From assembly GCA_963823335.1 (NCBI GenBank), contig CAWGLD010000007.1:345409-409408 (forward strand): a DNA stretch of 64,000 nt, read 5' to 3'. The position numbers were made by a program. This document shows positions 27,001 to 30,000 of the stretch, one piece after another (the first letter of the stretch is position 1; every line of letters begins with the position of its first letter). Origin of the DNA: an uncultured delta proteobacterium. Lineage in GTDB: Bacteria; Desulfobacterota; Desulfobacteria; Desulfobacterales; B30-G6.

Positions 27001-30000
27001 ACTGTCTGAATGTATTAGGCTCTATCCAGATTTTCCTCTATATTCTCGAAATCAAAGCCTTCAGGATACTTGGAATAATACTCATGGTACCATTCCCTTG
27101 CCTCATAAGCCTGGATCAGATGTTCCGCCGGAACACCGAATGGGAGATCTCAGCCGGGGGCAAATGTGAACCCCTGGGTACCGCCTGCCGCAAGACTGAT
27201 CAGGGCATCTTCTCTGGGTGACAGAAGTCCCAGGCCGAGGGCAAGGGTCAACTTCAGATTTCCACCAAACCCTTTACCGTATTTTCTTGCGATATCACGG
27301 ACAAAATTCAGGTTCATCTGTTCATCGATGGCAAATCCGTGGGTACCGACCTTGCAGACATCTTCAATGACCTTTGTGCAGTCACCACAGATGAAGAAGC
27401 TGGAAGTCTTGCCGGCATCATGTATGGCTGTTACGGCTTCCTGGCAGTTGGGTGTCACATATTCCTGAAAAGTCTCAGGTCGAATCTGCGACGCTACCGG
27501 ATCCACGATAGCGATGATATCACACCCCATTTGCGTATAAAACCGGGCAGACTCGGCACAGAGTTTACCGGCATAGGCTATAATGGCATGAGCGAAATCC
27601 TTCTTTTTTTTCAATGCCGTAAAAATACGCACACCGGCCAGATGAGAAGCCAGGGTCAGGGGTCCGGTCACCAGGCCGAGCATGGCGCAGTCCATTTCGT
27701 CGAGTTGCGGTTTGACCTTGGCTGCCGCCTGGAAAATGATCGGCCACCTTCCGGATGTTTTTGTAAACACCCCCAGCCCGAGTTCTTCGGGTGTCAACTT
27801 TTCACAGGGATGGGTCTTCACCGAAGGCACATTGTCTTCCCAGTATTCCAGTTCACAACCAATGGATTCCGCTTCCAGGGAGAGATCGAACAAGAGGGGG
27901 ATGCCATCCGCATGATAGGTTTTGGCGGCATGGACAACTCCCCGGGAAAGGATATCCGCATCCTTGAGATACCTGTCTGCTTTTTCATTGATAAGATAGG
28001 CACAGTTGACACCGGCATACGGAACCCAGGGGGCCTTGTCCGTTTCTTTCCCCCGTGTGGCGTCGATGAGCATCTGTTTGGCCATGAAATGCCTCCTTTA
28101 TGATTTTTTAATTACCTCAGGATTCCCAAAACCTCTTTTCTTCAATACTGCTCGGTGATATTCGATGGTAAGGCAAGCGTTGATCCTCTGATTTTTAAGG
28201 TCAAGAAGGTCACTCGAACCCTCGACCCCTTGAATCCTTGAACCCTTTATTTTTCTCGTATAGATCTGAACTGGCAGTGTTTCATCGCGCATTGCAGGCA
28301 TTTACTGCCCACGGGCTTTTGCTGCGCCGAATCACTGTATATGACAAAACCGGATATGGATTTTGCCGGTTGCATGACAAACGCATCATTCAGGTGCACA
28401 CCGGCTGTGTCTTGTCCCAACAGATCGAATATCAGGGTCTGGCTTTCCAGGGCCACGCCATTCAGACCCGGTCCCATCCGACATCCGGAAAAAAGACCCA
28501 TCCGTTGTGCATGCATCTCAATCATGTCATTGCATATCAACCCCATGGCATCCAGCATGGCTGTGCCAACAGCATCCAGCAGCAGGGATTGGTATATGCT
28601 GTTGCGTTTTGCAAGATCCCGGCACATGGTCTCGAGGGCACTGCCCAGGCTGCCGACAAAAACAGCAACATACCGGGCATCACTCTCCCACCTGTCAGGA
28701 AGCATGTCAGCATATGCGCCCCTTGACAAAACGATTCCGTATACTTCTTCAATCATGTCCATCGGAATCGCTCGATAACAAATAACCGCCTGTATCATCC
28801 CGACAGTCTGCCGGATGCCCTGGCATACCTGTTGACGTGTCTCCGGGGTCATGGGATAGTCCGGCCCCCCGAAGTAGCGGGCAACAGCCTCTGGTGACGG
28901 CCTGACATCTTCCGGGTCGACGTCAATTCTCACCGTCGATGAATCACCTGCCCCGAATATATCGGCAGTTATGAGTTTTTTCGGTTTGACAGTCATTCCA
29001 TAAAAAACCGTTTTACGGTCACCACAGGAGTGTTCAACGACCGAAACACGAAAGATCCGACCATGCTTGAGAAAGGTCGTAATTTGGCTTTAAAAAAGCG
29101 GCGCAGCCGCGTCAAATAAAATCGCCCGGCGATTTTATTTTAGTAGGGAAACTCAATTCCCATGTCTGCGATTTCATCTTTGATTCTGCGGTACATATCG
29201 TAATGTTCCTGGGTCGGCACCGCTTTGGCGACATCGTAGCATTCATGGTACTCACTCCCGATGGGCGCATCTGCGGCATGGTCCTCGTATTTTGCCAGCA
29301 ATTTCTTGGCAATCGCATTGACTTCGGCCCGGGACAAGCCCTGGCACGCGACAGCATGGCCCACTTCCATGCCGATTCTGGCTTCCAGCGGTGTTGCACG
29401 ATTCTTGTATTTGTTGCGGGTCGAAGCCATCTCCCACAGGTGCCATCCAGTGACCGTCGAGACCATGGCGTGAACCGCGGTTTCCCGAAACAGCATCTCC
29501 GTCATGGGACCGGCATTGGCGAATCCATTGGAAGTATGCAGCAGTTTACTGTTTCTGGCCAGCGCCTGCCCTGCCATGGCGATGGCCCACAGCAACTCCC
29601 GGGTGGTGTTGGAACCGTAATTCAAATGAAATGGAAAGTGCTGATTGAAAACAGCACCGTGAATCACCAGACCGATAAGACTGTAGGCGACCGTGGTCAC
29701 CGCCGTTCCCTCTGAGCCGCCGCACCATCCACCGTAAATCGCCCCGGTCAGGTTCCCGGTATAGCAGCCATACTGGGCATAATGAAGGGAGCGATTGAGA
29801 AGTGTGTCGGCGGTCTTGAACTCGGTCAGGGACCCTACAAGCCGTGCATCTGATTTTTGAACGCCCCACTCCTGGTTTGATACGGCGATTTGACCGCTGT
29901 CGTGCTCCGCGGTCCCCACGGCAACCATAAATGTTCCCGGCCGTCCCAGCAGTCTTGCCGCCAGCTTCTGATTGGTGATGTGCTGGATACAGCCGCTGAT

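Follow-up and report, generated by a model that had tools for sequence, protein, structure and literature searches.

A candidate selenocysteine-containing methyltransferase of the URO-D/MtaA fold in a corrinoid methyl-transfer operon of an uncultured Desulfobacterales bacterium

In an uncultured bacterium of the Desulfobacterales, a full-length methyl-transfer enzyme is most likely the product of a gene that is annotated, in truncated form, as a "uroporphyrinogen decarboxylase family protein". The gene lies on the minus strand of the stretch of 64,000 nucleotides analysed here (the window), and its product is probably a 356-residue selenoprotein of the URO-D/MtaA fold, in which UGA specifies selenocysteine (Sec) and which would act as a corrinoid-dependent methyltransferase in an MtbA/MtaA-like role. 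ORF calling at the locus gives a 311-aa ORF (27150..28085, minus strand) terminated by TGA. If the TGA is translated as Sec, the frame comprises 356 residues, from ATG at 28085-28083 to TAA at 27017-27015, with a GGAGG Shine-Dalgarno core 6 nt upstream of the ATG and an N-terminus, MAKQMLIDA, that is kept in relatives. The elements of the gene are as follows.

27015..28085, minus strand: predicted full-length gene for the Sec-containing URO-D/MtaA-fold methyltransferase, 356 aa with U312 (translation with TGA as U)
28092..28097, minus strand: Shine-Dalgarno sequence AGGAGG, read from the sequence, preceding the ATG at 28085-28083
27150..27152, minus strand: in-frame TGA, codon 312, predicted to be read as Sec (conservation of the site across related loci)
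27119..27137, minus strand: SECIS-like hairpin GGUGUUCC-GGC-GGAACAUC, 8 bp here, with a conserved 7-bp core at 27120-27136
27018..27149, minus strand: 44 post-Sec codons, against 31-32 in relatives; the final 12 form an extension found in this copy only

The Pfam URO-D domain (PF01208) matches residues 3-330 (E 1.2e-42; 146.6 bits against a gathering cut-off of 23.9) and therefore runs across the TGA, which sits in the context ...GFTFAPG-U-DLPFGVPAEH.... An initial annotation of this DNA had described a single in-frame TGA at residue 312 (FAPG-U-D), and both the gene structure and the domain match agree with it. The second copy that it had reported on contig C5 of the same genome is present at 244017-245048, likewise with a single TGA.

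Decoding of the in-frame TGA

Related loci were gathered by patterns based on the query or on closely similar Cys forms, and as a consequence all collected loci are at least 54% identical. Within this range TGA occupies the site in 78 of the 78 species loci that cover it (80 were collected); the initial annotation had counted 77 TGA and three TGC in 80 loci, and while the dominance of TGA held, no TGC was recovered in this set. The site is TGA in 20 of 20 site-covering matches among 61 relatives and in 74 of 80 metagenome loci, the remaining six having TGC or TGT. When three sets of related loci are combined, leaving out the genome itself, 160 TGA codons stand beside nine TGC/TGT codons at the same position. 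The best 120 protein clusters tell the same story from the annotation side, as 97 end at ...PG, 22 are full length with Cys312 and one has Trp, reproducing earlier counts of 97 and 22 and the earlier remark that the family is annotated as a truncated protein. In a tree, the Cys forms are nested among the Sec forms at seven or more places. Carriers of the gene include Desulfocicer vacuolatum DSM 3385 (L071) and Desulfatitalea alkaliphila M08but (L081). RNA contigs from three metatranscriptome runs span most of the gene, with possible DNA carry-over and a depth that is no measure of expression, and codon 312 is unchanged as TGA in RNA-library contigs of two such runs and in one DNA run. Judged by the conservation pattern, a chance origin of the in-frame TGA is excluded.

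The frame behind the TGA is open for 31-32 codons in 72 of 78 species loci, the number of loci given previously, and for 30-34 codons in 75 of 78; it reaches 44 in one, and two leave the contig. The peptide it encodes is conserved as D[ILM]P[FY]DVPxEH..QA.EAR.W[FY]..Y..YP, with synonymous change free, and pN/pS over codons +11..+30 is 0.28 versus 0.18 upstream of the TGA, pointing to purifying selection on the downstream peptide. These observations bear on whether the TGA could be a true stop, with the 311-aa protein as its product, in which case the conserved sequence that follows would be, for example, a small ORF or a regulatory RNA. Public annotation takes this view, as the 97 truncated clusters attest, and TGA is the commonest stop in the window, terminating 21 of its 47 genes. 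Termination at codon 312 would, however, cost the protein the last part of its barrel, including the residue aligned to a catalytic-site Cys of MtaA, and would leave a domain match that crosses the stop, 22 homologues that continue through the site with Cys, and a downstream stretch of 30-34 open codons that has no separate start codon and evolves under purifying selection in the frame of the gene. We consider a true stop very improbable.

The SECIS-like hairpin starts 12-13 nt after the UGA, with a UGA-to-loop gap of 20 nt and a loop of the form G-[GU]-[CU]; a gap of 16-37 nt is usual, as reported from work with bSECISearch. The hairpin belongs to the minimum-free-energy fold, and over 124 distinct sequences 98.2% of cells are paired, all seven pairs forming in 110 of the 124; none of 500 shuffles matched the observed pairing. 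Compensatory changes affect two of the seven stem pairs (A-U to G-C and U-A to C-G, in nine sequences each) among sequences that are mutually related. Synonymous sites within the hairpin are frozen, with pS of 0.10 versus 0.70-0.80 in the flanks and a synonymous entropy near 0 at codons +5..+10 versus 1-1.9 bits elsewhere. Both the compensatory changes and the frozen sites had been claimed at the outset, and they are borne out by these values. The Cys-form DNAs provide a control, in that five distinct ones retain 1, 3, 4, 5 and 6 of the seven pairs and are thus degraded, and one of the Cys forms (L119) encodes an identical DVPVEH peptide from different codons. The 71 nt that follow the UGA have a fold energy not better than that of shuffles (z 0.11), which was dropped as an argument; the case for the hairpin accordingly rests on conservation and covariation.

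The machinery for Sec insertion is encoded in the same genome. Searches for selA and selB, a gap named in the initial annotation, found both (610 and 373 bits), along with selD (372 bits) and tRNA-Sec (75 bits), all above curated cut-offs, and selD contains a TGA of its own. This bears on a second alternative, namely that the UGA is read through as something other than Sec, by near-cognate decoding as Trp or Cys or in a code where TGA is sense. One database homologue (P0069) does have Trp here, presumably because its gene was called with TGA as Trp. Where the codon is a sense codon, though, it always specifies Cys and never Trp (nine of nine TGC/TGT loci and 22 proteins), a conserved hairpin at SECIS distance would have no role in near-cognate decoding, the genome holds a full Sec machinery, and TGA serves as the stop of 21 of the window's 47 genes. 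Read-through of this kind appears highly unlikely. An internal control against a chance origin comes from the MttB-like gene of the same operon, which is TGA-terminated and whose homology ends at the stop in nine of 11 related loci. Long in-frame extensions behind two MttB-like genes of the window were considered as further selenoproteins and rejected, as the extensions are not conserved.

The machinery, the pairing of Sec with Cys forms, the hairpin and the selection on the downstream peptide all support the selenoprotein reading originally proposed for this gene. On this comparative evidence Sec is very probably inserted at codon 312. The UGA would be decoded by the genome's own SelA, SelB, SelD and tRNA-Sec, steered by the short hairpin 12-13 nt downstream, which lies within the codons for D/G-V-P-x-E-H.

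Operon context and the proposed methyl transfer

The TGA-containing gene is part of an operon, all on the minus strand, whose other members are listed here in order of transcription.

31713..32573, minus strand: GntR/HutC-like regulator, first gene of the operon (Pfam GntR and UTRA; NCBIfam HutC at 120.5 bits, below cut-off)
30798..31592, minus strand: corrinoid protein with a DxHxxG motif, presumed methyl carrier (Pfam B12-binding and B12-binding_2)
29140..30522, minus strand: MtmB-like methyltransferase, non-Pyl (without in-frame TAG), presumed substrate:corrinoid methyltransferase (Pfam MtmB, 4-450/450)
28247..28996, minus strand: stand-alone MetH activation-domain-like protein (Pfam Met_synt_B12)
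24749..26899, minus strand: NAD(P)-binding flavoprotein with Fe-S domains, GltD-like plus 2x[4Fe-4S] (Pfam, NCBIfam)
23198..24673, minus strand: non-Pyl methyltransferase of the MttB family, at the end of the operon (Pfam MTTB; TGA is its ordinary stop)

A corrinoid methyl-transfer context had been noted before, and it extends to relatives: among 77 loci with flanks, a corrinoid protein adjoins the gene in 60-62, a CobW/COG0523 GTPase in 64 and a RACo activase in 42, and MtmB-like or URO-D methyltransferases are usual neighbors. In 48 loci the order is [GntR]-corrinoid protein-MtmB-like-[MetH-activation-like]-TGA-containing gene-CobW-MttB-like, with the MtmB-like gene syntenic in all 48 at 78-97% identity and the MetH-activation-like gene in 17 of them. 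The operon of the window has no CobW gene, and its flavoprotein neighbors the gene in only three of 77 loci. The corrinoid protein motif, G150-D151-x-H153-x-x-G156, is invariant. Thioredoxin-like and thioredoxin-reductase-like genes adjoin the TGA-containing gene in many loci. Loci of the type of the second copy are arranged differently. An MtrH-like methyl-corrinoid:pterin methyltransferase is found in 17 of 77 loci, where it and another URO-D methyltransferase already form a complete system, and the gene of interest adds a further URO-D protein, its neighbors being RACo, DUF6951, DUF2284, CobW and a thioredoxin-reductase-like gene.

In methanogens, genes of this kind are arranged in mtmCB/mtbA sets. 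The order of corrinoid protein, MtmB-like protein and URO-D/MtaA-fold protein in the window mirrors that of MtmC, MtmB and MtbA, which leads us to read the last as an MtbA/MtaA-like partner. The enzyme is likely to transfer methyl groups to or from a corrinoid. As a corrinoid-dependent methyltransferase partnering the corrinoid protein of its operon, it would pass methyl between methyl-Co(III) and a soft nucleophile, either sulfur or selenium.

The selenoprotein could instead be an MT1 demethylase like MtsA or MtpA, delivering methyl from a sulfur or selenium compound to the corrinoid protein rather than serving as an MtbA-like exit; candidate donors are methanethiol, dimethylsulfide, methylmercaptopropionate and methylselenides. 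Consistent with such a role, the MtrH-like loci (17/77) contain the protein as an extra URO-D enzyme, and PMC10418091 describes the UroD-superfamily members in which both Cys ligands are retained as S- or Se-methyltransferases. Pfam ComA, for coenzyme M synthesis, was not found in the genome, which is 93.9% complete, a result that fits a demethylase and also led us to set aside coenzyme M as the acceptor, albeit on weak evidence because the search covered ComA and not other routes to coenzyme M. Against it, 48 loci resembling the window have two other putative MT1 enzymes (MtmB-like and MttB-like) and no other exit enzyme within the flanks. A demethylase role is thus possible but rather unlikely, and the MtbA/MtaA-like assignment is retained below.

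Fold and active site

The AlphaFold2 model of the full-length protein has a pLDDT of 95.9, with residues 341-356 at about 60. Its best Foldseek match is MtaA, the methylcobalamin:coenzyme M methyltransferase of Methanosarcina mazei (4AY7/4AY8; TM 0.85-0.90, rmsd 2.1), which belongs with MtbA and MtsA and shares the TIM-barrel URO-D fold; Foldseek gives the matches with MtaA and with many URO-D structures a probability of 1.00. The two proteins also match in sequence over residues 55-332 (E 1e-18, 22% identity). In the HMMER alignment U312 falls on the Cys of APGC, as the initial annotation had it, while C233 pairs with the Cys of HICG and D254 with the Glu position. The two proteins thus share the Cys that follows strand 6, and Cys or Sec occupies the P-G-C motif after strand 8. 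Like MtbA, the protein is encoded next to a corrinoid protein and an MtmB-type gene. Unlike MtaA, it has Phe231 for the His of the H-x-C motif and Sec for the second Cys, and its host is a bacterium in which ComA was not detected.

The Phe is general: all 145 Sec forms, all 28 Cys forms and all eight nearest outgroup proteins have it. Cys233 is retained, and the second Cys is represented by Sec/Cys312. The His-Cys-Cys zinc site described in the accessible portion of PMC10418091 is consequently not found in the clade. The placement of the Sec at the MtaA Cys position stands, but the metal-ligand role ascribed to it at the outset is weakened. Cys236, considered as an essential substitute for the lost His, was rejected, being Ala in 43 of 145 Sec forms. 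Because the canonical site is incomplete, a metal-ligand role is put forward with reserve: Sec312 may be a ligand of a catalytic metal, with a likelihood slightly below even. On barrel strand 8 it would take the C-terminal end, exactly the place of the second zinc-binding Cys of MtaA, and the site would be completed by Cys233, which follows strand 6, and by Asp254/Glu255, which follow strand 7. The zinc and homocysteine barrel of MetE offers a partial parallel, as its metal site draws on residues that follow strands 6, 7 and 8 and its chains are in the Foldseek list; MetE differs in its TM of only 0.5-0.6, in having the His that the clade lacks, and in using no corrinoid.

With the zinc-binding His lost, Sec312 may do more than bind a metal passively. 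It is conceivable, but improbable, that Sec312 is the catalytic nucleophile, its selenolate taking methyl from methyl-Co(III) as Se-methyl-selenocysteine and handing it on, or cycling through a selenenyl-sulfide, a bond that the thioredoxin-like and thioredoxin-reductase-like neighbors could reduce. If so, the enzyme would represent a metal-independent, selenium-based corrinoid methyl transfer, and could be the missing step by which methyl groups of methylated amines or sulfur compounds leave or enter the pathway in marine sulfate reducers.

Relation to known families and implications

The protein scores below the cut-offs of the NCBIfam models for its relatives: TIGR01463 (MtaA/CmuA; 126 versus 235.4), NF004889 (116 versus 244), NF040654 (MtaA; 105 versus 400) and NF041608 (MtbA; 82 versus 600). 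The HemE model TIGR01464 gives 48.1 bits against a cut-off of 302.95. Outside methanogens, the UroD-superfamily corrinoid methyltransferases that it resembles are Mlp1-3, MtaA-like proteins of type 1 mlp clusters. In the accessible portion of PMC10418091 their genes cluster with those of corrinoid proteins and of RACo/Ram activases, they are linked to selenium-using organisms, and ClMlp2 transfers methyl from methylcobalamin to selenide. By that same portion, Mlp1-3 differ in having a His-Cys-Cys site, in that none is described as Sec-containing, and in being commonest in Firmicutes; a term search of the paper gave no hit for 'Desulfo', 'CobW' or 'DUF2284'.

Among known selenoproteins, a table in PMC13188914 includes forms of HgcA, the corrinoid protein that takes part in mercury methylation, as well as of methylated-DNA-protein-cysteine methyltransferase (MGMT). 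In both, Sec replaces a Cys of methyl-transfer chemistry, as proposed here, but the folds are unrelated and neither is of the URO-D/MtaA type. The Sec of HgcA is next to the cobalt-ligand Cys, and that of MGMT is at the methyl-acceptor Cys. The selenoprotein lists and NCBIfam models examined have no entry for the URO-D/MtaA family, in line with the initial annotation; they include supplementary Table_13 of PMC8318568, which has none for this family, and the families of PMC9879109 as given in a review table, while Table S6 of PMC8318568 (34 putative selenoproteins of a related bacterium) falls outside this scope. As far as found in the literature examined, this would be the first selenoprotein of the URO-D/MtaA superfamily.

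The family had been called widespread in Desulfobacterales-type bacteria, a description that does not hold, since the distribution is patchy: 18 of 61 relatives have a close homologue, as do 10 of the 401 genomes sampled from the phylum. Hundreds of database entries would be short by 31-44 residues, including an active-site residue, and a selenoprotein model for the family would correct them. If the reading is true, it provides a rare case of Sec at the zinc-site position of an alkyl-transfer enzyme, and the natural Sec and Cys forms make the benefit of selenium in methyl transfer testable. The bacteria that carry the gene in their methyl-transfer operons are of the Desulfobacterales type and come from marine and estuarine sediments; as these hosts rival methanogens for methylated compounds, selenium supply would be tied to that metabolism.

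A probable recoded TGA codon in an MtaA-like gene

The gene under study appears in the window's ORF listing as a 311-aa ORF on the minus strand (27150..28085), with GGAGG upstream of its ATG (28085-28083) and a terminating TGA. When the TGA is read as selenocysteine (Sec, U), the frame continues to a TAA at 27017-27015 and encodes 356 residues with one recoded codon, U312, in ...GFTFAPG-U-DLPFGVPAEHLIQAYEAR..., reproducing the single in-frame TGA (FAPG-U-D) of the initial annotation. The Pfam URO-D match covers residues 3-330 (profile 3-343 of 346; E 1.2e-42, 146.6 bits), and the domain therefore crosses the TGA. 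A second copy, also claimed earlier for contig C5, was found at 244017-245048 with 69% identity and likewise a single TGA, while three distant URO-D paralogues in the genome are stop-free. The window's protein has 12 C-terminal residues beyond its closest relatives (27018-27053; 44 codons after U versus 31-32), with pLDDT there of ~60.

Codon 27150-27152 is bridged by contigs from the RNA libraries of two studies (27062-27314; 27022-27205) and by a DNA contig (27106-27366), with no difference listed in any of them; the in-frame TGA is not an assembly error. Because the bridging RNA sequences are contigs, they are silent on expression level. The intergenic region separating the gene from its upstream neighbour (~28210-28253) is repeat-like; many contigs end or diverge there in all four runs, and DNA-run depth climbs to 124.

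The TGA is retained across relatives. Among one-genome-per-species contigs, the site is covered in 78 of 80 related loci and is TGA in all 78; 72 of these remain open for a further 31-32 codons, one each for 30, 33, 34 and 44 codons, and two to the end of their contig. An even sample of the phylum yielded a close homologue in 10 of 401 genomes (11 places; TGA at 10, TGT at 1), and 61 relatives yielded homologues in 18 genomes, including 10 of 14 from the window's own family, with TGA in 20/20 site-covering matches. A metagenome scan seeded by the alignment of Cys forms (homologues with a Cys codon at 312) returned 80 loci, of which 74 carry TGA, 4 TGC and 2 TGT. In the best 120 protein-database clusters, the earlier counts were recovered: 97 stop at ...PG, and 22 carry Cys at 312 and extend to full length (341-348 aa). 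The remaining cluster shows Trp, presumably because the gene was called with TGA=Trp. A FastTree phylogeny was built from 145 Sec forms together with 28 Cys forms and 8 outgroup proteins; in it, Cys forms fall among Sec forms at seven or more separate positions, a pattern typical of Sec/Cys exchange.

Downstream of the TGA the predicted peptide is under purifying selection. Residues +13, +14, +16, +20, +25, +28 and +29 after U312 are 92-100% conserved with third codon positions free (149 distinct segments), and codons +11..+30 have a pN/pS of 0.28, compared with 0.18 over the 60 upstream codons. The operon's MttB-like gene, which ends in TGA, served as a control: of 11 related loci, 9 lose homology at that stop.

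A SECIS-like hairpin and the Sec machinery

Codons +5..+10 (GAT GTT CCG GYG GAA CAT) would form a hairpin, AUGUUCC-GKY-GGAACAU, that begins 13 nt 3' of the UGA, places the loop 20 nt from it, and has a loop that opens with G. The window's version, GGUGUUCC-GGC-GGAACAUC (27137..27119), lies within the minimum-free-energy fold. Across 124 distinct TGA-form sequences, 7 pairs are found in 110, 6 in 13 and 4 in one. Pairing holds in 98.2% of cells versus 21-56% with partner columns slid, two stem pairs each show two-sided change in 9 sequences, and none of 500 shuffles matched the observed pairing or covariation. Synonymous sites are nearly frozen (pS 0.10 within the hairpin versus 0.70-0.80 flanking), with GTT fixed in 139/139 and CCG in 148/149 sequences. 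The compensatory changes and frozen sites noted previously are borne out. Counting against the hairpin, most stem pairs are invariant and the compared sequences are mutually related; the fold energy of the 71-nt stretch after the UGA is no better than that of shuffles (z 0.11).

Of the 7 pairs, the five distinct Cys-form DNAs retain 1, 3, 4, 5 and 6. Metagenome locus L119, a Cys form with TGT, keeps 6 of 7 and still encodes the same DVPVEH peptide, but via GTA CCC. In the tree it clusters with a Sec form at support 0.975, and it looks like a recent Sec-to-Cys change. The sequence with 4 pairs is that of a Dethiobacter MAG (L065), in which the stem is shifted yet intact (ACGUUC...GAACGU); this sole related locus labelled Firmicutes has TGA and a 44-codon tail as in the window. 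Another locus, L067, labelled Nitrospinaceae, also has the Sec gene, so transfer or mis-binning may be involved.

The presence of selA and selB had been left as a gap. In the genome (11 contigs, 93.9% complete), curated models score above their cut-offs for selB (373 bits, cut-off 242), selA (610, 268) and tRNA-Sec (75, 47), and selD (372, 125) is present as a gene that itself contains a TGA. Otherwise TGA is a normal stop; the 47 genes called in the window end in TGA (21), TAA (20) or TAG (6). For a purely computational prediction, the case for selenocysteine at codon 312 is close to the strongest attainable.

Fold and putative active site

An AlphaFold2 model from a 62-row alignment (pLDDT 95.9, pTM 0.92) has as its top Foldseek matches Methanosarcina mazei MtaA (4AY8 and 4AY7; TM 0.85-0.90, rmsd 2.1 over 344 columns), followed by uroporphyrinogen decarboxylases (TM ~0.75-0.80) and, lower down, MetE. 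Phmmer against PDB sequences also finds 4AY7 (E 1e-18), and in that alignment U312 falls, as earlier proposed, on the Cys of APGC, C233 on the Cys of LHICG and D254 on a Glu. The metal-ligand numbers of 4AY7 match these positions given a 6-residue tag offset. C233, D254 and U312 follow model strands 227-231, 250-253 and 306-310, at the C-terminal ends of consecutive barrel strands. According to PMC539065, the metal ligands of MetH occupy equivalent strand ends (those of strands 6 and 8), and MT2-A has the ligand set of MetE. According to PMC10418091, UroD-superfamily S-methyltransferases have a His-Cys-Cys site, and the Cys residues are replaced in O-methyltransferases.

The MtaA-type metal-ligand role initially suggested is less secure than stated: U312 and C233 align with MtaA Cys residues, but the His is absent. 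Position 231 is Phe in 145/145 Sec forms, 28/28 Cys forms and the 8/8 nearest outgroup proteins (30-36% identity, motif SSFFVCG), with LHICG present in more distant URO-D methyltransferases. Because the His is missing, the putative site would consist of Cys, Sec and carboxylate(s) rather than His-Cys-Cys. The Sec enzyme shares the fold of M. mazei MtaA, and its putative active site is unusual, with Phe for His and Sec for the Cys of APGC. Clade-invariant residues are D195, P196, F231, C233, G234, D254, E255, G311, U/C312 and D313. Cys236 of the window's CGDC motif cannot be an essential ligand, since it is Ala in 43/145 Sec forms.

The NCBIfam models MtaA/CmuA, MtaA, MtbA and HemE all score under cut-off on the Sec protein, which is therefore filed in the URO-D superfamily with an MtaA-like fold, outside the MtaA and MtbA families. 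No NCBIfam selenoprotein model matches it.

Operon context and novelty

The operon is arranged as follows.

Position 1, minus strand: GntR/HutC-like regulator (Pfam/NCBIfam)
Position 2, minus strand: corrinoid protein, DxHxxG motif
Position 3, 29140-30522, minus strand: MtmB-like protein, no TAG
Position 4, 28247-28996, minus strand: stand-alone MetH-activation-domain-like protein
Position 5, 27015-28085, minus strand: Sec gene
Position 6, 24749-26899, minus strand: GltD-like, NAD(P)-binding Fe-S flavoprotein, 716 aa
Position 7, minus strand: MttB-family protein

Neighbours of the Sec gene in the 77 related loci with enough flank
CobW/COG0523 GTPase: 64
Corrinoid protein: 60-62
DUF6951: 43
RACo activase: 42
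Thioredoxin-reductase-like: 38
DUF2284: 37
Second URO-D protein without TGA: 29
MtmB-like: 26
MtrH-like: 17

The frequency of corrinoid proteins agrees with the corrinoid methyl-transfer context first assigned to the gene. Methanogens possess the set MtmC/MtmB/MtbA. The window-type arrangement (48 loci), [GntR]-corrinoid protein-MtmB-like-[activation-like]-Sec gene-[flavoprotein]-CobW-MttB-like, mirrors that set, and by this analogy the Sec enzyme is read as an MtbA-like partner; the window's own operon is without CobW. The second-copy-type arrangement (MtrH-like, URO-D, corrinoid protein, RACo, DUF6951, DUF2284, Sec gene, two small thioredoxin-like ORFs, CobW, thioredoxin-reductase-like) leaves room for the Sec enzyme as an extra, substrate-specific methyltransferase. 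A search of the genome (93.9% complete) gave no ComA, which makes coenzyme M an unlikely methyl acceptor. The neighbouring CobW gene points to a metal site, and the thioredoxin-type neighbours to thiol/selenol redox chemistry.

At the second copy's locus (L182, C5:232000-251900; region 13080-14290), the two small ORFs between the Sec gene and CobW are thioredoxin-fold-like with CAAC and CKRC motifs, and they are followed by a further CobW-like gene and one resembling thioredoxin reductase. The window's MtmB homologue is full length and non-pyrrolysine. No NCBIfam model matches it at E <=0.001, and at 78-97% identity across 48 loci it is more conserved than the adjoining Sec enzyme. The activation-like protein and flavoprotein that flank the Sec gene could provide RACo-independent reductive reactivation of the corrinoid protein; the flavoprotein adjoins the Sec gene in only 3/77 loci.

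The operon is embedded among histidine-utilisation genes (23198-56821).

32655-34688 and 53331-55175: hutU
34453-36255 and 51427-52995: hutH
48485-50044: formiminotransferase and cyclodeaminase
50171-51430: hutI

Also within this region are three non-Pyl MttB-family genes, the operon's MtmB-like gene, genes for a RACo activase (38794-40896) and for two molybdopterin oxidoreductases, and the divergent hutU is conserved in the 7 related loci with flanks long enough. We speculate that the region may be an island for demethylation of methylated histidine (e.g. hercynine), then histidine breakdown.

As stated initially, term searches of the prokaryotic selenoprotein-family table of the 2026 review (PMC13188914) give no URO-D or MtaA entry. 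They likewise give none for PF01208, TIGR01463, uroporphyrinogen or methylcob-, and the seven matches to 'methyltransferase' all belong to other families. The accessible text of Zhang and Gladyshev 2007 (PMC1976440) does not list the family either; for the Olavius Delta 1 symbiont covered there, a newer MAG has two copies of the Sec gene (L026 and L091). The accessible text of PMC8318568 names an 'mtaA-cmuA' gene, not as a selenoprotein. MtaA-like proteins are linked to methyl-selenide metabolism in the accessible text of PMC10418091, which describes none with Sec. Full-text literature searches combining selenocysteine with URO-D, MtaA or corrinoid methyltransferases returned nothing else relevant. 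On the scope of this searched literature alone, no earlier description of the family was found, and its standing as a new selenoprotein family within a known enzyme superfamily is well supported.
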